Below the pieces are notes generated by a model, which saw only the letters and a list, made by a program, of their open reading frames with translations, did not search any database and was not told where the DNA came from. Position numbers and translations under genes: made by a program. From assembly GCA_041662665.1 (NCBI GenBank), contig JBAZSC010000001.1, forward strand, positions 577,511 to 641,510: DNA of 64,000 nt, written 5' to 3'. How positions within the stretch are numbered: the first letter of the stretch is position 1; every line of letters starts with the position of its first letter. Shown here piece by piece: positions 15,057 through 62,100 of the stretch. This DNA comes from Patescibacteria group bacterium. GTDB lineage: Bacteria > Patescibacteriota > JABMPQ01 > JAQVVF01.

Positions 15057-15491
15057 CTACTTTCTACTTAAACTTATATAATTCTTTACAACTATTATTG
15101 TTACCCCAATTAAAATAATTCCAAAAATTTCAATCATTACACTCAGCAGATTTATTTTTACACCAATCTTATTTACAAAAAATATCACTAACGGCACCAA
15201 AGCCAAAGATAAAGCAATAGATAAAATAATTCTTTCAACCCAATCAATACCGTCATTTTTTTCGTCAGAACTATTTATCAGCGTCGTATCAGCGTTAGTA
15301 TCAGCGTCAAATCCGCTTCTACGAAAAAAGACATAGCTCCACACAAAACCAGGAATAAATAAAACATAAATAATTCCAAATACCAATCTAAAAGAATTTG
15401 CAAAACCAAGCCAAATAGAAGATATTAAAGCAATGATTGACAAAATTGCTAGAAATATTAATATAAATTTAATGATTTGTTTTGGATCCAT
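15057..15491 (-). CDS. small 4-TM membrane protein, a stand-alone paralog of the N-terminal module of 22307..24409
   Basis: Shares LFIPGFVWSYVFFRRSGFDADTNADTT and VERIILSIALS...KIGVKINLLS with the large protein. The NADTNAD loop is encoded by an ATCAGCGT repeat element. Confidence 0.6.
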   Translation of the reverse strand: MDPKQIIKFILIFLAILSIIALISSIWLGFANSFRLVFGIIYVLFIPGFVWSYVFFRRSGFDADTNADTTLINSSDEKNDGIDWVERIILSIALSLALVPLVIFFVNKIGVKINLLSVMIEIFGIILIGVTIIVVKNYISLSRK

Positions 15492-15561
15492 GTATTTAGA
15501 TTATCTTCTTTATTTTAACCTAAAAATAAAAAAAATCAAGGAATTATCTACAGTTTGATAC

Positions 15562-15590
15562 TTGCAAATAATTATACTACAAGCTACAAT
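15562..15590 (+). promoter_or_regulatory. putative sigma70 promoter of cysD (TTGCAA-N17-TACAAT)
   Basis: The hexamers and spacing were read directly. It lies about 50 bp upstream of the cysD ATG. Confidence 0.35.
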
Positions 15591-15641
15591 TAGAGTGTTG
15601 AAATTATATTTTATTTTTTAGAAACTTAAATTATTAAAAAT

Positions 15642-16445
15642 ATGACACATTTAGACAATCTAGAAGCAAAAAGTATTTACATTATTAGAGAAGCTTACAA
15701 GCAATATCATGACATTGCTCAACTTTGGTCAATTGGTAAAGATTCAACAACATTATTATGGCTTTGTCGAAAAGCATTTTATGGTCACTTACCATTTCCA
15801 GTTATGCATATTGATACTAGCTTTAAATTTAAAGAAATCTATCAATTCCGCGATGAATATACAAAAAAATGGAATTTAAAATTGATTGTTCATAGGAATG
15901 AAGAAGCCTTAAAAGCTGGAATGAATCCAAAGACAAAAGACAAACTTGAATGTTGTGGTCAATTAAAAACAGAAGCTCTAAAACAAGGAATTGCTCAATA
16001 CAAATTCAAAGCTTTATTATTAGGCATCAGACGCGATGAACATGGCATCAGAGCAAAAGAAAGAGTTTTTTCGCCACGAAATCAACAATTTCAATGGAAC
16101 TACAAAGATCAGCCAGCAGAATTATGGGATCAATATAAATCAAAACAAGCATCTGAACAACACATTCGCGTACATCCGCTTTTAGATTGGACAGAAAAAG
16201 ATATTTGGGCATATGTAGAAAGAGAAAATATTCCAATCGTTGATTTATATTTTGCAAAAAATGGCAAAAGATTCAGATCAATTGGCTGTGAAACATGTTG
16301 TGGTCCTGTTGATTCTAATGCATGCAATGTTCATCAAGTTGTTGAAGAATTAGAAACAACAAAGGTTGCTGAAAGATCAGGCAGAGCACAAGATAAAGAA
16401 AGTGTTTATGTGATGAATAAATTGAGAGCACTTGGTTATATGTAG
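15642..16445 (+). CDS. cysD: sulfate adenylyltransferase subunit 2
   Basis: Carries the PAPS-reductase-like motif SIGKDSTTLLWLCRKAF and is colinear with E. coli CysD. Confidence 0.9.
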   Translation: MTHLDNLEAKSIYIIREAYKQYHDIAQLWSIGKDSTTLLWLCRKAFYGHLPFPVMHIDTSFKFKEIYQFRDEYTKKWNLKLIVHRNEEALKAGMNPKTKDKLECCGQLKTEALKQGIAQYKFKALLLGIRRDEHGIRAKERVFSPRNQQFQWNYKDQPAELWDQYKSKQASEQHIRVHPLLDWTEKDIWAYVERENIPIVDLYFAKNGKRFRSIGCETCCGPVDSNACNVHQVVEELETTKVAERSGRAQDKESVYVMNKLRALGYM

Positions 16446-16455
16446 TCTTTATAAA

Positions 16456-16561
16456 GATACAAGAAACAAGATACAAACAATTTCCAATATCCAAATTAAA
16501 ATAACCAAACGCGACGAGTTTGAATATTGGTTATTGAAATTTGTTTGTATCTTGTATCTTG
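16456..16561 (+). other. long imperfect inverted repeat (arms of about 40 nt, loop GCGACGAG) between cysD and cysN
   Basis: caagaaacaagatacaaacaatttcc...ggttattgaaatttgtttgtatcttgtatcttg; the arms are near-perfect reverse complements. Confidence 0.6.
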
Positions 16562-16585
16562 ATTATTTATTTAATTAAAAAAAAT

Positions 16586-17827
16586 ATGTTAGAAAAGCAA
16601 TATTTGAAATTGGTCATAACTGGTCACGTTGATCATGGTAAATCAACTTTAATTGGTCGTTTGCTTTATGATACCGGTGCTGTTCCAGAAGACAAAGTTG
16701 CCGAAGTAAAGCAAGTTTGTGAATCTTTGGGCAGAGAAATGGAATTTGGTTTTATTACCGACCATTTTCAAGAAGAAAGAGAGCAAGGAATCACAATTGA
16801 TACAACTCAAATATTCTTCAAAACAGAAAAAAGAGAATATGTCATCATTGATGCTCCTGGTCACAAAGAATTTTTGAAAAACATGATTACTGGCGCTTCA
16901 CAAGCTGAAGCAGCTATTTTGATTGTTGATGCCAGCGAAGGCGTTCAAGAGCAAACAAAACGCCATGCTTATGTTTTAAGTATGCTTGGTATTCAACAAG
17001 TTATTGTTGCCGTAAATAAAATGGATTTAGTTGAATATAAATTAGATAGATTCAATGAAGTTGTCCAAGAATTAAAAACATTCTTATCTTCAATTAATTT
17101 AAAACCAACTTATATCATTCCAGTTTCAGCAAACAAGGGTGAAAACATTGCCAAAAGATCAACAAGCATGAAATGGTACAACGAAAAAACAATTTTGGAA
17201 GCTTTAGACAGCTTTACTCCGCTTAAAGATAAAGCAAATGAAACTTTACGTTTTCCAATTCAAGACGTTTACAAAGTAGGTGATAAGAGAGTTTTGGTTG
17301 GCAGGTTAGAATCAGGTTCAATCAAGCAAGGTGATAAAATAATCATGTTGCCATCAAATAATGAGTCAGAAGTCACATCCATTGAAGAATTTGGCAATCC
17401 AAATAAAAAAGAAGCTCATGCAGGCGAAAGCATCGGCATTACAATCAAAGATGATCCTTTTATTGAAAGAGGAGAAATAATTTGCAAAAAAGAAGAAGCA
17501 CCACAAGTTTCTGATACAATCAAAGCAAATGTTTTTTGGATGTCAAAACAAGGCTATAAAAAAGGCCAAAAAATAGTTTTCAGATCAGTTACTCAAGAAG
17601 TTCCAGGAACAATTTCAATAATTAATAAAAGAGTAAATTCATCAACATTAGAAACCTTAGAAGAAAATGCACCAGTAATTAATAATACTGAAGTTGGCGA
17701 AGTTACAATAAAATTAGAAAAACCAATTGTAATAGACGCTTTTTCCAAAGTCCAAGAAACAGGACGTTTCGTTCTTGCTGATCAATATGATACTGTGGCT
17801 GGAGGAATTATTCCAGATATTAAATAA
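16586..17827 (+). CDS. cysN: sulfate adenylyltransferase subunit 1 (GTPase); no APS-kinase domain
   Basis: Carries the G1 motif GHVDHGKSTL, DAPGH and NKMD. Start trimmed to the ATG at 16586. It is 414 aa, so not a CysNC fusion. Confidence 0.88.
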   Translation: MLEKQYLKLVITGHVDHGKSTLIGRLLYDTGAVPEDKVAEVKQVCESLGREMEFGFITDHFQEEREQGITIDTTQIFFKTEKREYVIIDAPGHKEFLKNMITGASQAEAAILIVDASEGVQEQTKRHAYVLSMLGIQQVIVAVNKMDLVEYKLDRFNEVVQELKTFLSSINLKPTYIIPVSANKGENIAKRSTSMKWYNEKTILEALDSFTPLKDKANETLRFPIQDVYKVGDKRVLVGRLESGSIKQGDKIIMLPSNNESEVTSIEEFGNPNKKEAHAGESIGITIKDDPFIERGEIICKKEEAPQVSDTIKANVFWMSKQGYKKGQKIVFRSVTQEVPGTISIINKRVNSSTLETLEENAPVINNTEVGEVTIKLEKPIVIDAFSKVQETGRFVLADQYDTVAGGIIPDIK

Positions 17828-17831
17828 TTTT

Positions 17832-17943
17832 ACGAGAATCTAGAATTTAGAATCTTGAATCTTGAATCGAATTTAGAATGTAGAATTCTAAATTCCAAAT
17901 TCTTCATTCATTCTAGAATCTAGATTCCAGATTCTAAATTCTT
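17832..17943 (+). repeat. tandem heptamer array (TWGAATY, about 10 units) followed by inverted copies (GATTCTA); a large palindromic structure
   Basis: gagaatc tagaatt tagaatc ttgaatc ttgaatc ... ttctagaatctagattccagattctaaattctt. Confidence 0.7.
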
Positions 17944-18657
17944 ATGTTTATAATTCTAGGTTACGATGGTTTGGAATACGATTTTGTCGAAAAAAACAAT
18001 TTTCCAAATCTCAAACAACAATCACATGGCATGACAGATTTGTCCGAATTTAAAGAACCAAGAACAATTGTTATTTGGTCATCTTTTATGGTTGGCAAAA
18101 ATTTAGAAGCAGACATCTTGAAGCAAGGCGCCAAAATGTGGGGTTCAAAAATCAAACCAGAAGATACTTTTTTAAAAAATTTCAAAAGCCATTACACAAT
18201 TGATGTTCCAGGATTTTCCTATGTCCTAAAACAACATGAAACAGAACGCGATTTGCTAAAAGGCTTTTTTGACAAAAAAAATGGAATTAAAGAATTTGAT
18301 AAATGCGCCTTTGACCATCACAAATTTGTTAAAGAACAATTTTTTAAAGAATTAAAGACTAATAAAGATTTAGTTTTTGGCTATTTTAATTTAGCTGATG
18401 TTGTTGGCCACTTGAGTTTCGGACAAGAATTAAAGATGAAATTAATCTATCAAGAATTAAATGATATTGCCAAAAAAGTCCAAACAGAACACCCAGATGC
18501 AACTATATTAATCATTTCTGATCATGGTATGCAAGCCATTGGCCAATTTGGCGATCATTCAAGACATGGTTTTTGGTCATTAAACAAGCAAATTAGTTTA
18601 AATAACCCAAAACCAACTGACTTCGCTAATTTGATATCTCAAAATTTTCAAATTTAA
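17944..18657 (+). CDS. short alkaline-phosphatase-superfamily (type I phosphodiesterase/nucleotide pyrophosphatase-like) protein, a truncated paralog of 31004..32575
   Basis: The N-terminus GYDGLEYDF is comparable to GLDGGTFRA. The SDHG metal-site motif is shared. It is only 237 aa versus 523. Confidence 0.5.
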   Translation: MFIILGYDGLEYDFVEKNNFPNLKQQSHGMTDLSEFKEPRTIVIWSSFMVGKNLEADILKQGAKMWGSKIKPEDTFLKNFKSHYTIDVPGFSYVLKQHETERDLLKGFFDKKNGIKEFDKCAFDHHKFVKEQFFKELKTNKDLVFGYFNLADVVGHLSFGQELKMKLIYQELNDIAKKVQTEHPDATILIISDHGMQAIGQFGDHSRHGFWSLNKQISLNNPKPTDFANLISQNFQI

Positions 18658-18672
18658 GACTTAAAATATTTC

Positions 18673-18701
18673 TTGTCAAAAGCAGGAACATAAGTTAAAA
18701 T
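18673..18701 (+). promoter_or_regulatory. putative sigma70 promoter (TTGTCA-N17-TAAAAT)
   Basis: Read directly upstream of 18726. Confidence 0.4.
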
Positions 18702-18725
18702 TAATACATAAAGAACAAACAAATC

Positions 18726-20495
18726 ATGAAAAAATTTGTTATTTTTTGTATAACGATCTTTACTTTATTCCAAACAAGTAATTTTGTTTTTGCTGAATCA
18801 ATTATTGTCACTGGTATAAAACAAAATGAGTTACAGCCAATCAGAACTTATAGTTTGAATACAGGTAATAAAATTAAAGAATTTTATCCATATGGAAAAT
18901 ATTTTTCTGGTGGCATTAATATTGCTGTAGGTGATCTAACTGGTGATAATAAAGATGAAATCGTTGTCTCACCAAAAAGCTCATGGCAACCAGAAATTAG
19001 AGTCTACACAAAAAGAGGAAAACTCCTTTCAAAGTTTTTAGCTTATGGAAAAAGTTTCAAAAACGGCATCGATATTGCAGTTGGCGATACAAACAATGAT
19101 GGCAAAAAAGAAATTATTACTGCTCCTGGCATACATAGCGATCCGATATTAAGCATTTTTAATTATAAAGGTAAAAAAATAATGCCAGATATTTTGGCAT
19201 TTCCAACAAATTTCAATAGAGGATTAAGTGTTGCTACAGGAGATATAAATTCTGACAGCAAAGACGAAATTATTGTTACAACTAATTCTGGCCAAGCGCC
19301 ATATGTAGAAATTTATAATGACCAAGCAAAAAAAATCGGACAATTTCTAATCTTTGACCAAGAATTCAGAGGCGGAGTAAATATTGCAGCAGGAGATATG
19401 AATAACGACAGTTACGATGAAATTGCTGCTTGCCAAGCATCACAAGGCACAGCATGCAAAATCTTTCGTTTTGGTTTCAAAACAAATGCTGTAAAAGAAT
19501 TGAGTGTTGTCAAATATCCAACGAATATTATTCCAAATTTCGGCAATGTTAATTCAGACAATAATAAAGAATTATTAATCTCTGATAGCAAAAAACCAAT
19601 TTTAAGTAGTTATAGCTTGGCTTTAAATTCAAGAACAACATTAAAATTAGCAAATGAAAACGTTCATTCAGAAATAGCTTTTATTCCTGATAATACTTTC
19701 AATTTTGTTGTCTATGGTGATACTCAACAAGTAGATCGTACAAATCATTTAAGAATAATCGAAGGAATTAACAACCAAAAATACGATTTTGCCTTTCATG
19801 TTGGCGATTTTACCCAAGATGATTCTGTTAATGAATGGGAAGTGTTTCAAAGACTGGAAAGCTCTATCATCAATAAAACACCCAAAAAAGGATTAAGCTC
19901 TGCTTTTTTTCCTGTCATTGGAAATCACGAATATGCATTAGATAATTATTTTACTCTTTTTAATACTTATCCAAAAAATCAATCATATTATTCATTTGAT
20001 TATAAAAATGCCCATTTCGTAGTACTAGATACCGAAACTGATTTTTCTATGGGCAGTACTCAATATGATTGGTTAAATTCTGATTTAGCCCTAACAAACA
20101 AAACCTGGAAAATTGTTTTATTGCATCGTCCTCCATACAATTCAAATTATAAATACAATTATTTTCATCCCAATGTAGATGTTAAAAATGATATTGTTCC
20201 AATATTAGAGCAATATAAAGTTAATATAGTCTTTGGCGGACATTCTCATATTTATGAACGGACTTATCCGATTTTTCAAGATCAAGCAAATTTTGTTAAT
20301 GGAATCACATATGTTATAACTGCTGTCGCTGATTCAAATCCAATTATGCCAAATTGGTGGACAGCAAAAAGCAAATCAGAATCATCATTTGTTAAAATTC
20401 AATTACGTGATAACATACTGAAAGGATACGCATATAACGAAATGCAAGGCTCGATAGACAAATTCGCAATCAATTCTAACTTATCAAATTTATAA
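18726..20495 (+). CDS. secreted protein with N-terminal FG-GAP/VCBS-like repeats and a C-terminal calcineurin-like metallophosphatase (purple acid phosphatase-like)
   Basis: Has a signal peptide and repeated GDxNxDxxDEI motifs (GDLTGDNKDEIVV, GDTNNDGKKEII, GDINSDSKDEII, GDMNNDSYDEIA). The metallophosphatase motifs are GDTQQ, GNHEY, LLHRPPY, GHSHIYER. Confidence 0.8.
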   Translation: MKKFVIFCITIFTLFQTSNFVFAESIIVTGIKQNELQPIRTYSLNTGNKIKEFYPYGKYFSGGINIAVGDLTGDNKDEIVVSPKSSWQPEIRVYTKRGKLLSKFLAYGKSFKNGIDIAVGDTNNDGKKEIITAPGIHSDPILSIFNYKGKKIMPDILAFPTNFNRGLSVATGDINSDSKDEIIVTTNSGQAPYVEIYNDQAKKIGQFLIFDQEFRGGVNIAAGDMNNDSYDEIAACQASQGTACKIFRFGFKTNAVKELSVVKYPTNIIPNFGNVNSDNNKELLISDSKKPILSSYSLALNSRTTLKLANENVHSEIAFIPDNTFNFVVYGDTQQVDRTNHLRIIEGINNQKYDFAFHVGDFTQDDSVNEWEVFQRLESSIINKTPKKGLSSAFFPVIGNHEYALDNYFTLFNTYPKNQSYYSFDYKNAHFVVLDTETDFSMGSTQYDWLNSDLALTNKTWKIVLLHRPPYNSNYKYNYFHPNVDVKNDIVPILEQYKVNIVFGGHSHIYERTYPIFQDQANFVNGITYVITAVADSNPIMPNWWTAKSKSESSFVKIQLRDNILKGYAYNEMQGSIDKFAINSNLSNL

Positions 20496-20542
20496 TAATT
20501 CAGTTTTTCTTCGCAACTTATTAAACTTATATTTATTAAGTA

Positions 20543-20707
20543 ATGCCAAGAAAGCTAAACAAAATAATGTGTGATTGTACAAAATGCGATTGCGGATGCA
20601 ATTGCGAACATGATGAAGAAGAAAAAAAAGATGATCAAAAAGAATATACGAATGATGAAGAAAAAATGATCAAGGACAAATTAAAAGGTCTAGGTTATCT
20701 TGACTAA
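20543..20707 (+). CDS. small Cys-rich protein (54 aa) missing from the ORF track: MPRKLNKIMCDCTKCDCGCNCEHDEEEKKDDQKEYTNDEEKMIKDKLKGLGYLD
   Basis: An ATG at 20543 reaches TAA at 20705-20707. It has a CxCxxCxCxCxC cluster and an acidic/Lys tail, and is metallothionein-like. Confidence 0.4.
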   Translation: MPRKLNKIMCDCTKCDCGCNCEHDEEEKKDDQKEYTNDEEKMIKDKLKGLGYLD

Positions 20708-20714
20708 AAAATCT

Positions 20715-20790
20715 CAAATTTACACAAATTTAGCACGAATTACACAAATATTAGTTCGTGAAATTTGTGTTTAATTTGTGTAAATTAGCG
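20715..20790 (+). other. complex palindrome (aatttacacaaat ... atttgtgtaaatt) downstream of the small Cys-rich ORF and upstream of the flippase
   Basis: Inverted repeats of TTACACAAAT were read directly. It may be a terminator or an operator. Confidence 0.5.
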
Positions 20791-20795
20791 ATTCT

Positions 20796-22241
20796 ATGTT
20801 TAAAAGGTTATTATTTGATACAATGTTTGCCTTATCAGCAAATACAATCTTCAAAGTATTGAATGCAATCATTGTTATCGTTCTAGCAAACTATTTAGGA
20901 CCTGATAAATACGGCATCTATTCAACAGCCATTGCTTTCATTGGTATTTTTTTAGTCTTCAGCGATATGGGCTTAAGAATGCTTTTAATTCAAGAAGGCT
21001 CTAAAGATATCAAAAAAGCGCCAGTTTATTTTGGCAATGCAATAATATTTCAGTCAATTCTAACTGTTTTAGTCATTCCGATTCTATTTATTACTTCAAA
21101 ATTATTTGGCTATTCACACATTACAGTTATCTTGATATTGGTTTTAGGTCCAGCTTTATTTCTGATTGAACAATCTCGAGTCAGTTGGGCAGTTTTAAGA
21201 TTAAAAAATATTAATAATAGCGTTTCAATTTCTGAAGTCTTGCAAGGTTTTGCATCATTAGGCGCAATATTTTTTATCACAAAACTTTCCGATACTCCTA
21301 CAAATCAAACTCTATTTTATATTGCCATTTCACAACTTGTTATAAATTTTGTTTATTTTATAGTTTTATTTATCTATGCCTCAAAAGCTGTTTTTAAGCC
21401 AGAATTTGCTTTAAAAGCTTTAAAAGGCATGCTGAAAAAATCATATATTTTTGCCTTGTCAGAATTATTTTTCACTGTTTATTTTCAAGTCGATCAAATC
21501 GTAATATCAATCATAAAAAATGCTCAAGACGTTGGTTTTTATTCCGCACCATTTAAAGTCATTATTTTCTTTCTTTTTATTCCAAGAATTTTAGTTAGAA
21601 TTTCACGTCCATTCATGTACAAACTGTTTTATGGAGGAATGGACAAATACAAAAGAATAAATATTTTTTTTCATCGATATTATTCAGCAATTGGCATTCC
21701 ATTAGGCATTCTAACTATTTTGCTAGCTCAACCAATCATTTTGTTTTTGTTTAAAGAAAAATATTCAGCTTCAATTCCTGTTTTAAAAGTTTTTGGCTGG
21801 TTTATAATGTTTTATTTTATCTCAGTTGCATCTTCACAATCTTTAACAACATTATTAAAACAAAAAACATTAACCAAAATTCAAGCGACAACAGTTATAT
21901 TAAATCTTATTTTAGATATTATTTTTGTTTGTTATTTTGGCTTCGTCGGTGCTGCTTATGCCACATTAATTGTCCAAATCATCGCATCATGTCTATTCAT
22001 TTATTTTGATGCAAAATATATGCAAGAAAAAATAATAAACATAATAAAACCGCTATTTTCAATAATAGCGGCGGGAATCGGTATGGCAATTTTTACCTAT
22101 TTATTACGTAATACAGTAGAATTTATACTCTTAGGAATAATGTCTTGTTTCGTTTATATTTTATTTCTTTATATTTTCAGATTTTTCAACGAATATGATA
22201 TTAAATTATATCAACAAATAATTAAGAAAAAACATAATTAA
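20796..22241 (+). CDS. Wzx/MOP-superfamily flippase (polysaccharide biosynthesis protein)
   Basis: A 481 aa polytopic membrane protein with a Wzx-like N-terminus. Confidence 0.7.
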   Translation: MFKRLLFDTMFALSANTIFKVLNAIIVIVLANYLGPDKYGIYSTAIAFIGIFLVFSDMGLRMLLIQEGSKDIKKAPVYFGNAIIFQSILTVLVIPILFITSKLFGYSHITVILILVLGPALFLIEQSRVSWAVLRLKNINNSVSISEVLQGFASLGAIFFITKLSDTPTNQTLFYIAISQLVINFVYFIVLFIYASKAVFKPEFALKALKGMLKKSYIFALSELFFTVYFQVDQIVISIIKNAQDVGFYSAPFKVIIFFLFIPRILVRISRPFMYKLFYGGMDKYKRINIFFHRYYSAIGIPLGILTILLAQPIILFLFKEKYSASIPVLKVFGWFIMFYFISVASSQSLTTLLKQKTLTKIQATTVILNLILDIIFVCYFGFVGAAYATLIVQIIASCLFIYFDAKYMQEKIINIIKPLFSIIAAGIGMAIFTYLLRNTVEFILLGIMSCFVYILFLYIFRFFNEYDIKLYQQIIKKKHN

Positions 22242-22306
22242 TTTTGACAATATCTCGATATCATAATATCCGTAATATTAACCAATTTAAAATAACAAAC
22301 CTAAAA

Positions 22307-24409
22307 CTATAAATTATCTTTATTGATTTTGAATATTATAATTGATCCTAATTTGTCTGAGTCAAAAAACTCAGCTTTTTTTTCTAAAAAATCTGTATTT
22401 AATAATTTTTCCTGATATTTCCAGTCGATGTCAGCTTTTGTACTAAAAGATCCAAGTACTTTTTTGCCAGCATAGACAAATTCAATATTATTTTTTTTAT
22501 AAAATGATCTCGATAATTCAGAATTTGGATCAAAGATCCAAGGACATTCGCCTTTATAATCATTGCAATCGCTACCGTCGATTACAGCTCTGCCAGTCAA
22601 TAAATTAATATAGCTACCCCAACTTCTCATTGCTAATGTCTTTGGATAAGATAAAATAATAGCATTTTGGTCAGTATTATTTCTTATCCAAGATAAAGCT
22701 TTTGCATCAGAATCTTGCAATCTAACTTTTTGATTATATTCTGTTGAATCTTTAATGAAATTTAATGTACTAAATGACAATATTAATATTAAAACAATCT
22801 TGAGAGCTAAATAGCTTTTATTTCTCAAAAATAATCCAATTGTCAAGAAAAAATAAGCAATCATAACTATCAAAGGCAAAGCTAAATCCAAAGCAAATCT
22901 ATTAGGTAAAATAAAAAATGAAAAACGAGTCCCAATAAACAAAGCGATAGCCCAGGAAATTATAATAATTTTTTCAGCTTTCTGTAGAGACTTAAAAAAG
23001 AAAAAGGGGATTGATATCAAACCAAGGCTAAATATAAAAACACCTAAATGATTATCATACGCTTTCCAAGATACAGCTAATTCTGGTATTTCCGAAGTTA
23101 CGCTCACATCGTTAATTTGGTTATTTACAGACATTGCACTTTGGAATTGAGCAATTATACTATTTAGAAAAATTTGAGAATAATATTCATAAGTCAAAGG
23201 CAATATTAGGACAAACAAAGAAAATATAAGAATTAAGAAATTTTTAAAATAAATATTCTCAAAAATTTTTAAATGTTTTTTAAAAGAATCAAATCTCGAT
23301 AAAAATTTAAGAATAAGTAATAAAAATGCTATCAAAAACAAAGTCAAAATCATATATGTACTCGATAGTGAATGAGTCAAAAACACTCCACCAAAGAATA
23401 AAAAACATAATATTATTTTTTTATAATTAATTTCTTTGCTCAAAAATAGATCCTTCAGAAATGCCAAGCCAAACAAGAATAAGCACAATCCAGCAAAAAG
23501 ATTTAGATAAGTACCAGTTGAATAAGAATTACCAGGCTGTCTTGATATAAAAACTAGCAAAACCAAAGAAATAATTGCTATCAACTCATTTTTAAATAAT
23601 TTCCTCACCAAAAAATAAAAAGCAAGATAAGAAATAATAAAAATAAATGGCACGAAAAATATTGTTGTTGTTACAACGTCTTGACCAGTAAAAAACGTTT
23701 CTAATGCTAATAGAGTGTGAAATAATGGGGGATCTAAAGATCCTTCCCAAGCTTTTGTAAAACCTTGTTCAATAATTCCTTTTGCTTCAGTCATGTGTCT
23801 TGTTGGATCATCACCTGGAGGAACAATGTAGTTATGATGGAAAATTCCGTAATAAAAATGGAAAGCTAGCAAAATAATCAGCAAAACCAAAATTATCGCT
23901 CCGAGATTATTTTTAACAAATTGCCAAAAATTAACTTTTTTTGATGCTATTATCGCAGAACTAAAAAAATTCTTATTAAAACCGTTTCTCAAAGAATAGA
24001 TTGATTGAGAAACAATAAATTCTTTGACAAATAAAATTATCAAGCCAATCATAATCAACAACGATATTTCAATCGCAGAGCTTAACAATGTAATTTTCAC
24101 ACCAAGCTTACTTGATAGAAACACAATTAAAGGCGACATTACAAAGGATAATCCAAACGACAAAATTATTCTATCCGCCAATCTTATAGAACCATTTTTC
24201 GGCGTTCTATCAGCGTTAGTATCAGCGTTAAATCTGCCTCTAAGCAACAAAAAGCCCCAAACAAAACCTGGCAAAAATAAAGCAAACACACTTCCTAAAA
24301 CAAATCTTAAAGATTCAAGTGCTGTAAATTTAAAAGTCAAAACAAAAAAAGCAACCATAGCAGATGCAATAAAAAGAAAAACGCCAAAAATAACTTTTTT
24401 ATTACTCAT
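22307..24409 (-). CDS. GT-C membrane glycosyltransferase, candidate STT3/AglB-like OST paralog, with an extra N-terminal 4-TM module
   Basis: The N-terminal 140 aa are paralogous to 15057..15491. The core has GDDPTRH and LDPPLFH, like 2706..4265. The C-terminus has SWGSYINLLTGRAVIDG, which is WWDYG...TGR...D-like, and matches the C-terminal domain of 2706..4265. Confidence 0.55.
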   Translation of the reverse strand: MSNKKVIFGVFLFIASAMVAFFVLTFKFTALESLRFVLGSVFALFLPGFVWGFLLLRGRFNADTNADRTPKNGSIRLADRIILSFGLSFVMSPLIVFLSSKLGVKITLLSSAIEISLLIMIGLIILFVKEFIVSQSIYSLRNGFNKNFFSSAIIASKKVNFWQFVKNNLGAIILVLLIILLAFHFYYGIFHHNYIVPPGDDPTRHMTEAKGIIEQGFTKAWEGSLDPPLFHTLLALETFFTGQDVVTTTIFFVPFIFIISYLAFYFLVRKLFKNELIAIISLVLLVFISRQPGNSYSTGTYLNLFAGLCLFLFGLAFLKDLFLSKEINYKKIILCFLFFGGVFLTHSLSSTYMILTLFLIAFLLLILKFLSRFDSFKKHLKIFENIYFKNFLILIFSLFVLILPLTYEYYSQIFLNSIIAQFQSAMSVNNQINDVSVTSEIPELAVSWKAYDNHLGVFIFSLGLISIPFFFFKSLQKAEKIIIISWAIALFIGTRFSFFILPNRFALDLALPLIVMIAYFFLTIGLFLRNKSYLALKIVLILILSFSTLNFIKDSTEYNQKVRLQDSDAKALSWIRNNTDQNAIILSYPKTLAMRSWGSYINLLTGRAVIDGSDCNDYKGECPWIFDPNSELSRSFYKKNNIEFVYAGKKVLGSFSTKADIDWKYQEKLLNTDFLEKKAEFFDSDKLGSIIIFKINKDNL

Positions 24410-24411
24410 TT

Positions 24412-24615
24412 TTATTTTTTTATTTCGAAAGAATCATCTGATACAAAAGCTAAGATAATTCCGAAAGCTAAGCCTAAAATCAAAACAATTTGACTGTTTA
24501 AATATCTATCATTAATCACATAATCTGTCCAAGAGTTTAAAACAGTTAGCAGAATAAACAATATCATACTTAATAAAAATCCATATTTACAAATTGTAGC
24601 TAAATATTTTTTCAT
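24412..24615 (-). CDS. small 2-TM membrane protein (67 aa)
   Basis: The ORF abuts the start of the GT-C gene. It is hydrophobic. Confidence 0.35.
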   Translation of the reverse strand: MKKYLATICKYGFLLSMILFILLTVLNSWTDYVINDRYLNSQIVLILGLAFGIILAFVSDDSFEIKK

Positions 24616-24617
24616 AT

Positions 24618-24660
24618 TTTTGAATTTATCAGCGTTAAATCAGCGTTAGAAATCAGCGTC
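24618..24660 (+). repeat. 4 x ATCAGCGT element (periods 11-13-11)
   Basis: atcagcgttaa atcagcgttagaa atcagcgtcga atcagcgc. Confidence 0.85.
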
Positions 24661-25237
24661 GAATCAGCGCTTGCTTCAATCTTGCATAAAAATTCTGCAT
24701 TTCATTTTTACTATAATTTTTCTTTAAGTTTAAGTCAATTTCAGTCAGTGTTAACAAATTTTGATCTGTTACACCAGCTGCAGAAATCGCAAAAGTCAGC
24801 TTATTATTTTTAATATAATAATTACTCAACAAAAATTCTCTCAAATTAAAATTAGCACATGCTTTTTTCCATTGTGAATCGATATCTGTAACTTTTGTAT
24901 CAACAAATTCATATTTATCAAATGCTTTTTCAGCACCTAATCTTATTGAACTTGGCTGTCCACTATATTTTACGCATAAATTTGCATCATTAAAATTGGG
25001 TGGAATTCTAACTGAAAAATAAATTAATTCTGCCTTAACTTTTTGCGAATAATCACTGCCAACATGTTCAACGGGCAATAGTCTATACCAAGGATACGGA
25101 TTAGAAAAACGCAACGAATCATCAGGATTAAAATTATAAACAATTGTCATATTCTTATCAAACACAAAAAACATTGATAAAACATAGATTATCACTGCGA
25201 CAAACAGAATCCAAATTATTATCTTCAAAATTTTCAT
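24653..25237 (-). CDS. membrane-anchored hypothetical protein (N-terminal TM plus an extracytoplasmic domain)
   Basis: An ORF bracketed by two ATCAGCGT elements. The C-terminal ALIRR is encoded by the element. Confidence 0.5.
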   Translation of the reverse strand: MKILKIIIWILFVAVIIYVLSMFFVFDKNMTIVYNFNPDDSLRFSNPYPWYRLLPVEHVGSDYSQKVKAELIYFSVRIPPNFNDANLCVKYSGQPSSIRLGAEKAFDKYEFVDTKVTDIDSQWKKACANFNLREFLLSNYYIKNNKLTFAISAAGVTDQNLLTLTEIDLNLKKNYSKNEMQNFYARLKQALIRR

Positions 25238-25254
25238 ATTTGTAAAATCAAAAT

Positions 25255-25297
25255 GTCAGCGTCATATCTGCGTTAGAAATCAGCGTCGAATCAGCGA
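25255..25297 (+). repeat. 4 x ATCAGCGT element (periods 11-13-11)
   Basis: gtcagcgtcat atctgcgttagaa atcagcgtcga atcagcga; nearly identical to 24618..24660. Confidence 0.85.
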
Positions 25298-25299
25298 TT

Positions 25300-27435: not shown

Positions 27436-27446
27436 ATTAAAATTTA

Positions 27447-27489
27447 TTCAGCGCAATATCAGCGTTAGCAATCAGCGTCAAATCAGCTT
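27447..27489 (+). repeat. 4 x ATCAGCGT element in a divergent promoter region (periods 11-13-11, terminal atcagcttctaca)
   Basis: ttcagcgcaat atcagcgttagca atcagcgtcaa atcagcttctaca. Confidence 0.85.
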
Positions 27490-27512
27490 CTACAAAAGAT
27501 TATAACATAAAA

Positions 27513-28463: not shown

Positions 28464-28530
28464 AGTTTAGAAATTTAAGCATTAAAAATTTAATAGAAAT
28501 TAGAAATTGAAAATTAGAAATTCGCTATAT
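28464..28530 (+). repeat. tandem TWGAAAT heptamer array
   Basis: tagagtt tagaaat ... tagaaat tgaaaat tagaaat. Confidence 0.6.
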
Positions 28531-29600: not shown

Positions 29601-29639
29601 TTCTGCTTTTTCTGCGTTAGCTTCTGCGTTCTTCTGCGT
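29601..29639 (+). repeat. 4 x TTCTGCGT element (periods 9-12-10)
   Basis: ttctgcttt ttctgcgttagc ttctgcgttc ttctgcgtc. Confidence 0.85.
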
Positions 29640-30445: not shown

Positions 30446-30492
30446 ACTAAAAAACGTTATCGCCACCCAACTTTAGTTGGGGTTATATCAAA

Positions 30493-30513
30493 GCGAAATA
30501 ATTTCGTTTTTTT
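30493..30513 (+). terminator. intrinsic terminator (cgaaa-taa-tttcg plus a T-run)
   Basis: Read directly after the CDP-alcohol phosphotransferase gene. Confidence 0.5.
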
Positions 30514-30542
30514 GTTATCTTTAAGCCAAAAACCAAAAAATA

Positions 30543-30571: not shown

Positions 30572-30601
30572 TATATGTTCACTCAAGCCAGGGAGGAAAG
30601 A

Positions 30602-30925: not shown

Positions 30926-30926
30926 T

Positions 30927-30949: not shown

Positions 30950-30951
30950 TA

Positions 30952-53650: not shown

Positions 53651-54703
53651 ATGAAAGTCACAATTTCGTTATTAAATTATAATAAGAAAAAATATCTTCC
53701 ATATTGTCTAGATTCAGTTCTTCAGCAATCACATCAAGATCTAGAAATATTTTTTGTAGATAATGCATCATCAGACAGTTCTTTTGAATACCTAAAAAGT
53801 TATGCTGAGCATAAATACCCATTAGCAAAAATAAATTTTATCAGAAACCAAGAAAATTTAGGATATTCAAAAGCACATAATGAAGTTATTAAAAAAGCAA
53901 CAGGTGAATTTATTTTTTGCTTAAATCCAGACATTATTTTAAACAAAGATTATATTAAAAATTGCCTAGAAATTTTGATGCAAAATCCAAAAATGGGTGC
54001 AATTACAGGAAAACTTTTTAAATGGGATTTTGCTCAAAATACAAAAACTAATATCATTGATTCCTGCGGACATAGAATTTTAAAAACACATCGCATTATA
54101 GAATGGGGAAGCAATCAAAAAGATTCTCCAGAATTTGAAACTATAAAAAAAATATTCAGCGTCTCTGGTGCGGCTCCAATTTATCGCAAAGAAGCACTTG
54201 AAAGTATAAAATTCAAAATTCCCCAAAATTCGAAAAATAATTCGCAAACATTCGAAAATAAATTTGAGTATTTCGACGAGTCATTTTTTGCCTACAAAGA
54301 AGACATTGATCTATCATGGCGCTTATTACATGCGGGCTGGGAAATCTGGTTTGATCACAAATCACATGCCTGGCATGACCGCTGGGAGACAGGAACAGGA
54401 GAAACAGCTCTAAAAACAGCAGAGCAAAGAAACAAAAAATCTGACTTAATTAACAAATTATCATACCGTAATCATTTATTATTGTTATACAAAAATGAAT
54501 TTGCAAGTAATTTCTTAATTTATTTCCCATGGATCTTCTTTTATGAACTTGGCAAATTCTTTTACACCTTATTCAGAGAACCAAAAAATCTATCAGCTAT
54601 AATTGAATTATTCAAACTCTGCAAATTGACCAAAGCAAAAAGAAATGCTATAATAAAAAATAGCAAGATCAAGCCAAAAGATATCAGAAAATATATCTAC
54701 TAA
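53651..54703 (+). CDS. GT2 glycosyltransferase carrying an in-frame ATTCGAAA element (NSKNNSQTFENKFEYF)
   Basis: Carries VTISLLNYNKKKYLPYCLDSV...FFVDNASSDSS. The element is at 54227..54276. Confidence 0.8.
   Translation: MKVTISLLNYNKKKYLPYCLDSVLQQSHQDLEIFFVDNASSDSSFEYLKSYAEHKYPLAKINFIRNQENLGYSKAHNEVIKKATGEFIFCLNPDIILNKDYIKNCLEILMQNPKMGAITGKLFKWDFAQNTKTNIIDSCGHRILKTHRIIEWGSNQKDSPEFETIKKIFSVSGAAPIYRKEALESIKFKIPQNSKNNSQTFENKFEYFDESFFAYKEDIDLSWRLLHAGWEIWFDHKSHAWHDRWETGTGETALKTAEQRNKKSDLINKLSYRNHLLLLYKNEFASNFLIYFPWIFFYELGKFFYTLFREPKNLSAIIELFKLCKLTKAKRNAIIKNSKIKPKDIRKYIY
54227..54276 (+). repeat. 4 x ATTCGAAA-family element in-frame within the GT2 gene
   Basis: aattcgaaaaata attcgcaaac attcgaaaata aatttgagta. 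Confidence 0.8.
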
Positions 54704-57556: not shown

Positions 57557-57593
57557 GTGTTAACTGTTAATTGTTAACTGTTAATTGTTAACT
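57557..57593 (+). repeat. tandem TTAACTG/TTAATTG array upstream of ctpA
   Basis: gttaactgttaattgttaactgttaattgttaac. Confidence 0.6.
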
Positions 57594-59770: not shown

Positions 59771-59805
59771 TTTGTATAAACTGTTAACTATTAACTATAA
59801 TCACG

Positions 59806-60252
59806 ATGAAAGTTGTATTAAAAAAAGATGTTGAAAAATTAGGTTTTGCTGGAGAAATAAAAGAAGTTACTTTAGGTTATGGTAAGAATTTTTTGTTACC
59901 ACAAAAATTAGCTGTTTTAGCTACTGAAAAAGAAATTCAGATTGCTAAACAAATGCAAGCAGAAATTAAAAAAAGAAAAGAAGAAGCTTTAAAACAAGCT
60001 AAAGATCTAGCTGAAAAGATTAACCAAAAAGAAATCAAAATTTCTTCAAAAGCTAATGAAGAAGGAATTTTATTTGGCTCTATCACTGCAAAAGACATTT
60101 CAGAAAATATCAAAGAACAATTAAAATTAGATATTGATGAAAAAGTAGTCGCTCTTGCTTCTGCAATCAAAAATACAGGCGAGTACGAAGTCAAACTAAA
60201 ATTTGCACCTGAAATCTCAGCTGACATTAAAGTTATTGTCGTTAAAAAATAA
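59806..60252 (+). CDS. rplI: 50S ribosomal protein L9
   Basis: MKVVLKKDVEKLGFAGEIKEVTLGYGKNFLLPQKLAV is the L9 N-terminus. Confidence 0.9.
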   Translation: MKVVLKKDVEKLGFAGEIKEVTLGYGKNFLLPQKLAVLATEKEIQIAKQMQAEIKKRKEEALKQAKDLAEKINQKEIKISSKANEEGILFGSITAKDISENIKEQLKLDIDEKVVALASAIKNTGEYEVKLKFAPEISADIKVIVVKK

Positions 60253-60329
60253 AATAACAAAATTTTAAAATATTTATAGGCAAGAATAATTAAATCAAAT
60301 TTATTATTCTATAAATAAACATTACGACT

Positions 60330-60389
60330 ATTCAAATAATTTGCATATTCGCTAGATTTGCATTATTTGTATATTCGTATTATATTTTC
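60330..60389 (+). repeat. ATTYGYAT-family element forming the pyrG leader (shares a 28-mer with 32689..32716)
   Basis: atttgcatattcgctagatttgcattatttgtatattcgtattatattttc, followed by the ATG. Confidence 0.7.
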
Positions 60390-62018
60390 ATGCAACCAAA
60401 ATACATCTTTATCACTGGAGGCGTAATTTCATCTTTAGGAAAAGGCATCACGTCTGCTTCAATTGGCAAACTTTTGCAAGATCTTGGATTCAAGGTCGTA
60501 AACATTAAATGCGAAATGTACGTTAACATTGATGCAGGAACAATTCGACCAACAGAACATGGGGAAGTTTATGTTACAGAAGATGGAATGGAATGTGATC
60601 AAGATTTGGGAACTTACGAAAGATTTTTGAATCAAGACATTAAGAAAGAGTGTTTTTTAACAACTGGCCAAATCTATCAAGAAGTTATCAGAAGAGAAAG
60701 AAATCTTGAATATGATGGTGAAGATGTTGAAGTTGTACCGCATGTCCCAAAAGAAATTATTAGAAGAATTAAATTAGCTACAGAAAAAAGTAAAGCCGAT
60801 TTTGCAATCGTTGAATTTGGCGGCACAGTAGGCGAGTATCAACAAGTTCTTTTTCTAGAAGCTGACAGAATGATGAAACATGAACTAAAAAAGGATGTGC
60901 TAAACATTCATATTGCTTATCTTCCTATTCCTCCAAGCGTTGGTGAAATGAAATCAAAACCAGCTCAATATTCAGTTAGAACATTGTTCTCAGCTGGAAT
61001 TGTACCAGATATTTTTATTGGCCGTTCAACAACATATATGGATCAACATAGAATGGAAGTCCTTTCAAGAAATACTAACATTGCAATTGAAAACATTTTT
61101 TCTAATCCAGATGTTAAATCAATTTATGAAGTTCCATTGATTTTAGCAAAACAAAAAGTCGCAGAATGTGTTTTAGGATTTTTTGGTGTTAAACCTAGAA
61201 AAAAAGCAAGTTTAACAAACTGGAAAAAATTAGTTAAAACAATCAAAGAAGTAAAAAAAGAAATAAAAATTGGTATCGTCGGAAAATATTTTGCCTCTGG
61301 AGATTTCTCACAAGGCGATTCATATATATCTGTCATCGAAGCAATAAAACACGCTTGCTGGGCTAATAATGTCAATCCAATAATAAAATGGCTTGATTCA
61401 GAATCATACGAAAAAGATCCAAAAAAAGTAACAGAATTAAAAGAATGCGATGGCATCATTGTACCAGGCGGTTACGGAAAAAGGGGAGTCGAAGGTAAAA
61501 TAAATGCTATTAAATTTGTTCGCGAAAATAAAATTCCATATTTAGGATTATGCTATGGCTTGCAAATGGCTGTCATTGAATTTGCTAGAAATATTTGTAA
61601 AATTAAAGATGCCAATACTACAGAGAATGAACCAAATACAAAGAATCCAGTCATTGATGTCATGGAAGCACAAAAAAAACTTTTGGCTAAAAAACAATAT
61701 GGAGCTTCTAATCGTCTAGGATCATACGAGTGCAAACTCAAAAAAGATAGCAAAACATTTAAAGCTTATGGCAAAGAAACAATTTTCGAACGCCATCGAC
61801 ATCGCTATGAATTAAATAATAGCTACAAAGAAATTCTAGAAAAAAATGGCTTAAAAATAGTTGGCCACAATCCATATTTGAATCTAGCAGAAATAGTTGA
61901 GCTAGAAAATCATCCATGGTTTATCGGTACTCAATTCCATCCAGAATTTAAATCAAGACTAGAAAGTCCACATCCACTATTTGTCAGTTTTATCAAAGCT
62001 GCAATAGATAATAAATAA
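60390..62018 (+). CDS. pyrG: CTP synthase
   Basis: MQPKYIFITGGVISSLGKGITSASIG plus a glutamine amidotransferase C-terminus (GLCYGLQ, HPEF). Confidence 0.95.
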   Translation: MQPKYIFITGGVISSLGKGITSASIGKLLQDLGFKVVNIKCEMYVNIDAGTIRPTEHGEVYVTEDGMECDQDLGTYERFLNQDIKKECFLTTGQIYQEVIRRERNLEYDGEDVEVVPHVPKEIIRRIKLATEKSKADFAIVEFGGTVGEYQQVLFLEADRMMKHELKKDVLNIHIAYLPIPPSVGEMKSKPAQYSVRTLFSAGIVPDIFIGRSTTYMDQHRMEVLSRNTNIAIENIFSNPDVKSIYEVPLILAKQKVAECVLGFFGVKPRKKASLTNWKKLVKTIKEVKKEIKIGIVGKYFASGDFSQGDSYISVIEAIKHACWANNVNPIIKWLDSESYEKDPKKVTELKECDGIIVPGGYGKRGVEGKINAIKFVRENKIPYLGLCYGLQMAVIEFARNICKIKDANTTENEPNTKNPVIDVMEAQKKLLAKKQYGASNRLGSYECKLKKDSKTFKAYGKETIFERHRHRYELNNSYKEILEKNGLKIVGHNPYLNLAEIVELENHPWFIGTQFHPEFKSRLESPHPLFVSFIKAAIDNK

Positions 62019-62061
62019 CCAAAAATAAAATCGCCTCATCGGCGATTTTTAGTTTTAAAGT

Positions 62062-62100
62062 TTCTGCATTTTCTGCGTCAGCTTCTGCGTCATTCTGCGC
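62062..62100 (+). repeat. 4 x TTCTGCGT element (periods 9-12-10) between convergent pyrG and rpmA
   Basis: ttctgcatt ttctgcgtcagc ttctgcgtca ttctgcgc. Confidence 0.85.

Follow-up and report, generated by a model that had tools for sequence, protein, structure and literature searches.

Repetitive extragenic palindromes (REPs) and the insertion sequences IS200/IS605 are the known case of elements whose orientation follows the direction of replication. Single-strand transposition into the lagging-strand template is known for IS200/IS605 and has been suggested for REPs, which carry the tetranucleotide GTAG at their foot. Rickettsia palindromic elements (RPEs), palindromic repeats of 100-150 bp, are restricted to Rickettsia. 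For the intervening sequences (IVS) of rRNA genes we know of no description of tandem-octamer arms or of a spread through protein-coding regions. IVS are selfish insertions with terminal inverted repeats whose stem is cut by RNase III, and sometimes hold a small open reading frame (ORF); excision by RNase III is known for the Coxiella IVS (PMC4990558). In a 64,000-nucleotide stretch of the chromosome of a bacterium of the Candidate Phyla Radiation (CPR; Patescibacteria group bacterium, contig JBAZSC010000001.1, positions 577,511 to 641,510; termed the window in the following) we found co-oriented arrays of direct octamers, most of them of the type WTCWGCGT. We filed them as a short interspersed repeat, solo arms of GxxExxY/IVS-type cassettes, which is apparently undescribed: neither full-text searches of the literature nor Rfam yielded a description of this architecture, linked to GxxExxY or otherwise, and the original prediction, made from the letters of the window, knew of none either. 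We give a probability of about 0.5 to the reading that each array is one arm, present as a solo copy, of a short inserted element, a GxxExxY/IVS-type cassette.

The octamer family itself is real, with arrays at all positions where it had been predicted (15277, 24198/24209, 24628, 25255, 27447, 33824, 37860, 29601, 36353 and 62062), and the strand excess behind the prediction is borne out by counts of the 8-mers and their reverse complements. In the window, ATCAGCGT occurs 15 times on the + strand and as two isolated copies on the - strand (0.8 expected), TTCTGCGT nine times on the + strand and never on the - strand (1.2 expected), and the degenerate unit WTCWGCGT 26 times versus twice. These units form 11 WTCWGCGT arrays of three or four units each. 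Counting all arrays with at least three units of an 8-mer containing at least three G/C, we observed 12, whereas 20 dinucleotide shuffles averaged 0.05. The finding is a real one, neither random nor ordinary. An assembly artefact can be dismissed, since two independent assemblies, Logan SRR18595301 (arrays at 15300-28506) and JGI Ga0172379 (60339-63342), are 100% identical to the window over the parts covered and contain the arrays located there.

Fifty-nine units from the window and its relatives define the consensus W-T-C-W-G-C-G-T, in which T2, C3, G5 and C6 are invariant or nearly so. Each unit comprises 8 bp plus a spacer of 2-5 bp, a whole solo array measures about 40-50 bp, and about 20 dispersed sites are occupied. 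The spacing is 11-12/13-11 in ATCAGCGT-type and 9/10-12-10 in TTCTGCGT-type arrays, always short-long-short, and in 15 arrays the direct repeats recur about every 10-11 bp (11-13-11 or 10-12-10). A spacing of 11-13-11 covers 35 bp over four units, and the units look like two pairs that are not exactly on one helical face. The 11-bp phasing proposed originally is correct as far as the direct repeats are concerned, and does not put all four units on exactly one face. A distinct last unit, ATCNGC(T/C)TCTA(C/T/A), closes six arrays; it ends with CTAC in four of them (15277, 27447 and both at 37860) and with CTAT or CTAA in two more (33824, 24198).

All WTCWGCGT arrays are on the + strand. Two ATCAGCGT-type arrays with four units lie in frame inside ORFs of the DUF1616 type, namely 15277-15322 (11-12-11, last unit ATCCGCTTCTAC) in the DUF1616-like ORF 15057-15491(-), where it encodes the peptide RRSGFDADTNADTTLI, and 24198-24244 in the DUF1616 ORF 22307-24409(-). 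Three others follow closely: 24628-24670 (11-13-11) overlaps the stop of 24653-25237(-), 12 nt upstream of a 67-aa gene (24412-24615, -); 25255-25297 is located between the stop of 25300-27435(-) and the start of 24653-25237(-); and 27447-27494, ending with ATCAGCTTCTACA, separates the divergent starts at 27435(-) and 27513(+). The four-unit ATCAGCGT-type array at 33824-33870 stands just upstream of 32691-33818(-), and its last unit, ATCTGCTTCTAT, is the source of the stop codon of 33867-34811(-). Two tandem ATCAGCGT-type arrays with four and three units, both ending with CTTCTACA, occupy 37860-37945 between a predicted minus-strand -10 (37953-37948) and the ATG at 37837; the second begins at 37909, confirming the doubling noticed at this site. 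The four-unit TTCTGCGT-type arrays are found at 29601-29639 (9-12-10; 8 nt past the stop of 28507-29592(+) and 11 nt before the ATG at 29651), at 36353-36392 (exact units, 10-12-10; abutting the terminator of 35896-36318(+) and overlapping the last codons and stop of 36371-37837(-)) and at 62062-62100 (flanked by the bidirectional pyrG/rpmA terminator hairpin and the stop codon of rpmA). The contexts named in the original prediction, i.e. divergent regions, convergent ends where arrays abut or supply stops, and ORFs, were correct, and the arrays are tolerated in leaders, trailers and protein loops.

In other genomes such arrays bracket genes. When the small ORFs adjoining arrays were clustered, GxxExxY was the only neighbour family shared across phyla. 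In locus L044, for instance, left and right arm exactly enclose a 133-aa ORF that encodes a GxxExxY protein (TIGR04256, E = 1e-25; PF13366, PDDEXK_3). Starting from arrays, we obtained seven GxxExxY loci from CPR, Chloroflexota, Acidobacteriota and Verrucomicrobiota. Starting from the protein, all four genes sampled on long contigs (L133 from Elusimicrobia, L135 from Sungbacteria, L136 and L138) were bracketed by arms, giving a total of 11 GxxExxY loci flanked by inverted arms. All four protein-first cassettes are built from a left arm GTAGAAGCNGAT-(ACGCNGAT)n, the gene (ATG...stop) and a right arm (ATCNGCGT)n-ATCNGCTTCTA. The cassette ends, GTAGAAGCNGAT...ATCNGCTTCTAC, match the last unit of the window arrays. 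The outer unit ATCNGCTTCTA(C) closes the window arrays 15277, 27447, 33824 and both at 37860 as well as cassette arms of L135, L136, L138 and L104. Cassette arms begin with GTAGAAGC in L135 and L136, and those of L136 consist of TTCTGCGT units. A cassette from the same metagenome-assembled genome (MAG) as L124, a sister of the window organism, has four units per arm with short-long-short spacing (L080). Judged by sequence, the window arrays are of the same family as the right-hand cassette arm, terminal unit included.

A second protein family, 23S_rRNA_IVP (PF05635; IVP in the following), also occurs between such arms. Its genes in L133, L135 and L033 are flanked by inverted arms of CCACTTAT, GAACTTGG/AACTTAG and TCAGAnn units, and IVP genes are found close to GxxExxY cassettes. 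The tandem-unit arms around IVP genes, one of which is inside a 16S gene, link the design to classical rRNA intervening sequences. The function of PF13366 is given as 'unknown' in the literature, with 'multiple transfers' between divisions (PMC3424549). One PF13366 member matches 5,562 clusters at 50% identity. Many of the GxxExxY representatives at this identity level reach 300-900 aa, the domain being central; these long proteins represent either read-through of the stop-free arms by the gene caller or cassettes in frame inside host genes. Cultured phages yielded no GxxExxY, plasmids one diverged Fusobacteria member accompanied by ATCNGTG-like units in direct orientation, and solved structures no match by sequence.

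The arrays themselves are widespread. A three-unit pattern (ATCAGCGT N2-5 ATCAGCGT N2-5 ATCWGC) matched at least 120 stretches in the species-representative genome set, compared to about 9 expected by a rough estimate of our own. About 20 among the matches listed are coding Asp/Ala repeats and the remainder are non-coding arrays, which, among the matches listed, come from Anaerolineae and other Chloroflexota, Verrucomicrobiota, Cyanobacteria, Acidobacteriota, Planctomycetota, Omnitrophota, several CPR groups and Methanosarcina. In the general unit, ATCNGCGT, the fourth base is free. Units elsewhere repeat every 10 bp, with a period of 11 in Verrucomicrobiota and an alternating one of 10-13 in CPR, and there is again a distinct outer unit, ...GCGG, ...GCGTCC or, in CPR, ...GCTTCTA. 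Most of the loci listed contain inverted pairs, ACGCNGAT x3-4, a short loop and ATCNGCGT x3-4, that form palindromes of 60-90 bp; L126 combines a ATTCGTAT-type left arm with a ATCAGCGT-type right arm. Sites right after stops and between convergent genes are preferred. The window arrays are single arms of an element that normally is an inverted pair, a point absent from the original prediction. At gathering thresholds, Rfam detected no family at the arrays in 20 array-bearing loci. The same pattern in viral contigs returned mostly coding Asp/Ala repeats and a few solo arrays.

In two CPR loci arrays are inside rRNA genes, the 23S gene of L031 and the 16S gene of L033. In L031 (5135-5219) there is an ORF-less inverted ACGCNGAT/ATCNGCGT pair; L033 (7304-7687) has a 23S_rRNA_IVP ORF with TCAGAnn/nnTCTGA tandem arms in a 16S gene that also holds a group I intron. 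Further variants were noted in passing. The MAG UML_A.mb.15 (L008, L028, L036, L054, L114) has a multicopy element of about 140 bp with a ATCAGCGT array near one end and terminal inverted repeats of its own, TGTGTAAAAAT(A)TTATTT, which breaks the assembly at five contig ends. L093 1098-1856 (Acidobacteriota) and L118 1244-1824 (Geobacter-like) contain tandem units of 215 bp or about 170 bp, each bounded by CCGCNGAT...ATCNGCGG arms, which look like repeated insertions resembling miniature inverted-repeat transposable elements (MITEs) next to a GxxExxY gene.

Pairing between the arms does not seem to be what is conserved. Solo arrays fold worse than shuffled sequences (z = +0.6 to +1.45), and of the 54 unit pairs in 17 inverted pairs, 16 are complementary at the mirrored free fourth position, versus 35% expected by chance. 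Without excess complementarity at the free position, the arms conserve a motif and not base pairing, and a hairpin or covariation between the arms was ruled out. Both values also speak against an action at the RNA level, in which the arrays would be leader or trailer sites of an RNA-binding protein or halves of IVS-like processing stems. It is true that, judging by predicted promoters, the arrays at 34812 and 37860 belong to 5' leaders, and that a stop codon and a terminator enclose those at 30974, 36353 and 62062. Paired arms in rRNA or around cassettes could, moreover, form RNase III-type stems as known for IVS (PMC4990558). The single DNA orientation, however, yields ACGCUGAU in minus transcripts and AUCAGCGU or UUCUGCGU in plus transcripts (29601, L128), so that there is no constant RNA sense, and we consider such an action quite unlikely.

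The orientation of the arrays was the most surprising part of our findings. All arrays are on the + strand, 11 out of 11 in the case of WTCWGCGT, regardless of the strand of the neighbouring genes. Only a partial inverted partner at 32618-32659 and two isolated octamers on the - strand depart from this; the strict + orientation claimed originally holds for all WTCWGCGT arrays. One chromosomal orientation is shared by arrays flanked by - genes (24628, 25255, 33824) or by + genes (29601, 42139, 60339, 63305), by those separating divergent starts (27447, 37860) or a + terminator from the stop of a - gene (30974, 36353, 62062), and by in-frame arrays within - ORFs (15277, 24198, 48659) and + ORFs (42613, 54215). 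Rules relative to genes, such as a position upstream of - genes or an outer end abutting stops, were ruled out because + genes precede some arrays, and + operons and ORFs contain others. Lineage-specific arrays of the related genomes L122 (one), L139 (two) and L140 (one) have the + orientation of the window, too. The 11 window arrays and these 4 sites of relatives, which have no ATCAGCGT-type counterpart in the window, make 15 sites with one orientation (two-sided binomial about 6e-5); the test is a simple one and orthologous sites are not independent, yet there are at least five separate layers of gain. On the + strand C and A are in excess in nearly all 4-kb bins of the window, with a uniform skew across its 64 kb and about 5 kb of flank of the source. 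A C-rich and A-rich + strand throughout fits one replichore. Some 5.5 kb added beyond the window by exact-protein look-ups held no further arrays, and a lineage-specific pattern matched only four short contigs in the metagenome collection.

A polarity of this kind might also mark signals of host replication or segregation similar to Chi, Ter or the FtsK orienting polar sequences (KOPS). The co-orientation is strict along 47 kb or more of a strand whose C>G and A>T skew is uniform, KOPS and Chi are octamers as well, and the arrays specific to relatives keep the same orientation. We nevertheless regard such a signal as very unlikely. The architecture is common to several unrelated octamer families, the sister genomes L124 and L140 do without the arrays, known polar motifs are single and dispersed instead of being arranged in four-unit arrays, and the inverted pairs in other genomes, including other CPR, would defeat any polarity.

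The comparison of orthologous loci proposed in the original prediction, for which we used L122, L124, L139, L140 and L141, revealed a presence/absence polymorphism between related genomes. L122 and L124 are syntenic with the window (75-76% identity in a 711-aa GT39-like protein); PyrG of L139, L140 and L141 is 96%, 94% and 85% identical, respectively. L122 carries ATCAGCGT arrays at the orthologs of 24198, 24628, 25255 (with six units) and 27447 and a ATTCGTAT hairpin at the ortholog of 32618-32715. L124 has no array at any of these sites and shorter spacers (39 nt vs 77/84 nt at 27447). In the interval between the pyrG/rpmA terminator and the rpmA stop we found four TTCTGCGT units in the window, four ATCAGCGT units in L139, none in L140 and, in L141, four ATCAGCGT units ending with ATCAGCTTCTAC, the source of the stop codon. 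Upstream of pyrG there are ATTYGYAT units in the window, ATTMGCAA units in L139 and L141 and none in L140. L140 has a ATCAGCGT array of its own between its NifU and YkuD genes, and L139 two further arrays beyond the end of the window. The arrays are thus variably present between close relatives.

Between the window and L122, 8 of 96 octamer positions differ, compared to 12 of 33 spacer positions (Fisher p = 4e-4), and the spacing is unchanged. This conservation of octamers and spacing, but not of spacers, suggests recognition by a sequence-specific protein. The DUF1616 array (24198) is an in-frame insertion of about 15 aa missing from the L124 ortholog. Its frame differs between the window (RGRFNADTNADRTPKNGS) and L122 (ADKTLISNADTTLKKKS), indicating that the periodic DNA was kept and not the peptide. 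Other sites have exchanged their contents: L122 has an unrelated hairpin at the 29601 site and inverted AATTGCTC arrays at the 33824 site. The promoter TTGATT-16-TAAAAT upstream of the GT2 gene (33867-34811; GT, glycosyltransferase) is conserved in the window, L122 and L124, and just downstream of it there is a ACTTTATA array in the window, a ATCAGCGT array in L122 and AAATTCGAA-like repeats in L124. Here, at 34812, one family can stand in for another as a module separating promoter and start codon. In front of the flippase gene, the -10 of L122 is 6 nt away from the ATG without an array, and the 86-bp double array separates the two in the window.

These conserved octamers could alternatively be operators of a host transcription factor, a tandem winged-helix protein of the OmpR/PhoB type or a ribbon-helix-helix protein, acting on an envelope glycosylation cluster. 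In favour of this, eight ATCAGCGT arrays are within 23 kb of glycosyltransferase, flippase and DUF1616 genes, many arrays are 5-23 nt away from start codons, and octamers are kept when spacers are not, with a spacing fixed near one helical turn. L124 and L140, however, retain the genes and core promoters without arrays. There is no fixed site, either: arrays also occur past stops or terminators, in the pyrG-rpmA interval and, in frame, within ORFs of either strand, in an orientation independent of gene direction, and the same octamer arrays flank GxxExxY genes and lie in rRNA genes across phyla. Of the window ORFs, 20 were scanned with Pfam and 9 with NCBIfam and the rest were covered by Pfam tables of syntenic loci, some remaining unchecked; among these there was neither a regulator gene nor a rep-like gene. 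We therefore regard operators as unlikely. The iteron or OmpR/PhoB regulon suggested in the original prediction is not supported in view of the arrays missing from L124 and L140 and of those in 3' ends, in-frame ORFs and many phyla. A promoter function of the arrays was ruled out as well, because conserved sigma-70-like promoters are located outside of them and are retained in array-free relatives.

The number of units is variable. At the 25255 site there are four in the window and six in L122. At the 63305 site the window and L139 have four units and L140 (3764-3838) a single ACTTTACAA unit that holds the -35-like TTTACA of the cysteine-desulfurase promoter; either the array expanded from a promoter element or it contracted. 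Such changes (1 vs 4, 4 vs 6), together with the many other tandem arrays of 7-9 bp in the intergenic spacers of the window, would fit minisatellite-like local replication slippage in AT-rich spacers that has no sequence-specific function. As a full explanation slippage is quite improbable, since it cannot create identical arrays at unrelated sites or one orientation, and 11 loci here, as well as others in distant phyla, share the octamer, the short-long-short spacing and the special last unit.

The relatives also show other short elements at these sites. The L141 ortholog of the GT2 gene 53651-54703 has a diverged insert at the same place as the 54215 array. Small palindromes of different kinds occupy sites equivalent to window arrays in L122 (GTAGAGACGTTGCAATGCAACGTCTCTAC, TGTCATTTCGAGCGAAGCGAGAAATCCCG...; 6937-7023, 7825-7925) and L141 (CCTGCCTGCC...GGCAGGGG; 8967-9120); short elements of more than one kind compete for these spacers. 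We also noted -10 boxes only 6-7 nt away from starts (window 27496-27515 and 37948-37976, L122 1377-1461): TATAAC before the ATG at 27513, kept in three genomes, and TATTAT before the flippase ATG of L122. These suggest leaderless mRNAs, in which the insertion of an array would create long leaders without a Shine-Dalgarno sequence.

Returning to the cassette-arm reading, we propose the following scheme. An arm consists of three or four head-to-tail ATCNGCGT octamers (WTCWGCGT in this organism), arranged as two pairs with about one helical turn per unit and closed by the outer unit ATCNGCTTCTAC. In other genomes two arms face each other, either as a palindrome at gene ends or as a bracket around a GxxExxY/PDDEXK_3 gene. 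In this lineage single arms would have been inserted or copied into sites that tolerate about 45 bp, namely the stretch between promoter and start, the stretch between stop and terminator, where they often donate the stop, and in-frame loops of membrane and glycosyltransferase proteins. The octamers may serve as head-to-tail recognition sites, in two pairs, for a sequence-specific protein, with the PD-(D/E)XK protein of the cassette as the first candidate. The uniform orientation could result from strand-specific insertion or retention relative to the direction of replication, the + strand of the window being lagging-strand-like throughout. Alternatively it might be that one orientation is counter-selected. 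Copying, conversion and slippage may matter as much for the spread as cut-and-paste, considering the replacement of flanking nucleotides described below, the lack of visible target duplications and the changes in unit number. Arrays that were retained may have gained a role for the host.

Several observations weigh against this reading. In the window we found no GxxExxY or IVP ORF and no partner arm for any WTCWGCGT array, which is why we call the arrays solo arms and not cassettes. No target-site duplication is visible between filled and empty sites, with flanks diverged at most sites; where they align, an array replaces 12-20 nt instead of being a plain addition, which fits copying, conversion or slippage as well as transposition. 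A check for such duplications had been proposed in the original prediction, whose idea of a mobile element with a polarity is supported in part; a mobile-element origin fits far better than chance. The change in unit number shows that local slippage contributes. That two unrelated families, PDDEXK_3 and 23S_rRNA_IVP, occur between such arms weakens the idea of the encoded protein as the binder. Conservation of the octamers at orthologous sites is unexpected for dead selfish DNA and may indicate a host function. Finally, local GC/AT skew and orientation were not related in 78 solo arrays of other phyla (p = 0.6), a weak test as the 8-kb skew is dominated by gene strand, and a short contig from the same sample (L128) has ATCAGCGT and ACTTTATA arrays in opposite relative orientation. 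The polarity may thus be specific to a lineage or family.

A more far-reaching form of this reading is possible but on the doubtful side. According to it, ATCNGCGT arrays would be the ends of an undescribed, cross-phylum small mobile cassette whose PD-(D/E)XK GxxExxY protein reads the phased octamers and whose design is shared with rRNA intervening sequences. Single arms would insert or stay in a strand-specific manner at the fork, leading to co-orientation across a replichore, and would then be kept by selection as protein-binding sites in leaders, trailers and protein loops.

Three further octamer families of the same build were named in the original prediction and exist in the window, each with three arrays: ACTTTAWA (30974, 34812, 63305), AATTCGMA (42139, 42613, 54215) and ATTYGYAT (32666, 48659, 60339). 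They are on the + strand, with the exception of one left arm. The four-unit ACTTTAWA arrays are located at 30974-31012 (period about 9; containing the stop of 31004-32575(-), with a terminator-like hairpin next to it on the minus strand), at 34812-34855 (between the minus-strand promoter TTGATT-16-TAAAAT at 34904-34877 and the ATG at 34811) and at 63305-63342 (after the stop of 62774-63298(+), the last unit holding the -35-like TTTACA of the next gene). AATTCGMA arrays occur at 42139-42169 (three units; 1 nt past the stop of 39858-42137(+) and 18 nt before the ATG at 42187), at 42613-42654 (four units, 12-10-12; in frame inside the GT4-like ORF 42187-43392(+), peptide NSKINSQKFEKEFE) and at 54215-54258 (in frame inside the GT2 ORF 53651-54703(+), a 19-aa insertion compared to the paralog 27513-28463). 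The latter two, AATTCGAA-type arrays in the same frame of two unrelated + glycosyltransferase genes, add near-identical peptides, NSK(I/N)NSQ(K/T)FE(K/N)(E/K)FE.

The ATTYGYAT family is represented inside the ORF 47542-49263(-) by five to six units (48659-48710), 9 nt upstream of the pyrG ATG at 60390 (60339-60380) and, as an inverted arm pair, at 32618-32715 between 31004-32575(-) and 32691-33818(-). The left arm of this pair (32618-32659) is in reverse and the right arm (32666-32715) in + orientation. It forms a real hairpin (z = -5.85), conserved in L122 and absent from L124. A similar tandem-unit-arm design, resembling that of cassettes, is present at 17835-17942, between the EF-Tu-like gene 16541-17827 and 17944-18657: AGAATCT x7 faces AGATTCT-like 7-mers, and the sequence folds into a long hairpin (-36.1 kcal/mol, z = -5.8). 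AAGTAGT x3 followed by CTTTCTA x4 fills 15017-15069, where the start of 13903-15018(-) and the stop of 15057-15491(-) face each other; the ATCAGCTTCTACA unit has TTCTAC as its terminal motif. Tandem 7-mers are also found in short spacers just upstream of gene starts at 57558-57593 (TGTTAAC/TGTTAAT x5) and 28494-28522 (TAGAAAT x4). The intergenic DNA of this genome is built largely from short tandem units.

The window has a G+C content of 29-31%. Its genes are mostly involved in cell-envelope glycosylation (GT2, GT4, GT39-like, flippases, DUF1616), accompanied by rplI, pyrG, rpmA and an EF-Tu-like gene. No tRNA was found in it, and Rfam at gathering thresholds detected no family and no rRNA gene. 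An alternative genetic code was ruled out by long ORFs tiling under table 11. Pfam and NCBIfam scans of its small and unannotated ORFs gave no candidate for a transposase, nuclease or DNA-binding protein, and the Pfam tables of syntenic loci held neither a transposase nor a DNA-binding gene. Four small genes (137, 118, 135 and 140 aa) within 30446-30973 and 34856-36352 have no family match. Near-consensus promoters, TTGACA-17-TATCAT, TTGACA-17-TATACT and TTGACA-17-TATACT, precede them at 30543, 34907 and 35859, and the one at 35382 has TTTACA-17-TATACT (10/12 match). Predicted terminators end the first, third and fourth of the small genes and the 118-aa gene. Compared to L122, the same four are insertions in the glycosylation cluster, and L124 has different small genes there.

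If the cassette-arm reading is true, PF13366, a common family of unknown function, and the origin of rRNA intervening sequences gain a concrete DNA partner, a phased octamer array with a defined end. It would also account for oddities of CPR and environmental genomes such as tandem-unit spacers, contigs interrupted at GxxExxY genes, additional peptide stretches within membrane proteins and glycosyltransferases, and stop codons donated by repeats. If the orientation follows replication, this would imply single-strand or fork-coupled insertion or retention by an element without an HUH transposase, and would provide a new replichore marker for uncultured genomes.

The arrays share features with several known systems. 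Iterons and OmpR/PhoB operators are likewise direct repeats near one helical turn and arranged in pairs. They differ by the about 20 dispersed sites found here, without a replication gene or a fixed promoter position and including ORFs and rRNA genes; iterons of plasmids and phages, furthermore, are tandem repeats of 17-22 bp next to an initiator gene or origin, whereas the units described here measure 8 bp plus 2-5 bp. KOPS and Chi are octamers with an extreme strand bias over a replichore-sized stretch, too, but the arrays are tandem, fall into several families, are dispensable and form inverted pairs elsewhere. MITEs are also non-autonomous, multicopy and polymorphic in presence, and elsewhere (L118, L093, the UML_A MAG) 10-170 bp of unrelated sequence are enclosed by the arms as terminal inverted repeats. 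The WTCWGCGT arrays of the window, in contrast, are one arm only, with no target-site duplication seen and no known transposase partner. RPEs likewise insert in frame into protein genes, adding a peptide without destroying the protein; the arrays differ in being direct octamers of 40-50 bp that are co-oriented.

The resemblance to REPs, including the bacterial interspersed mosaic elements (BIMEs) and REPINs that are mobilised by RAYT (Y1 HUH) transposases, extends to size (about 35-90 bp), copy number, the location mostly at gene ends or between convergent genes, and the frequent inverted doublets. The outer end with GTAG...CTAC may be compared to the REP foot. Each REP, however, is a hairpin, and the arm described here consists of direct octamers without self-pairing; the gene between the arms encodes a PD-(D/E)XK GxxExxY protein and not a RAYT/Y1 transposase; five arrays are inside ORFs; and the octamer is common to phyla, unlike the species-specific REPs. 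From IVS of the S23p/23S_rRNA_IVP type the window differs by having single arms only, no rRNA gene and no ORF-bearing cassette. The likeness lies in the other CPR genomes, where arrays are found inside 23S and 16S genes and, in a 16S gene, an IVP ORF with tandem-unit arms.

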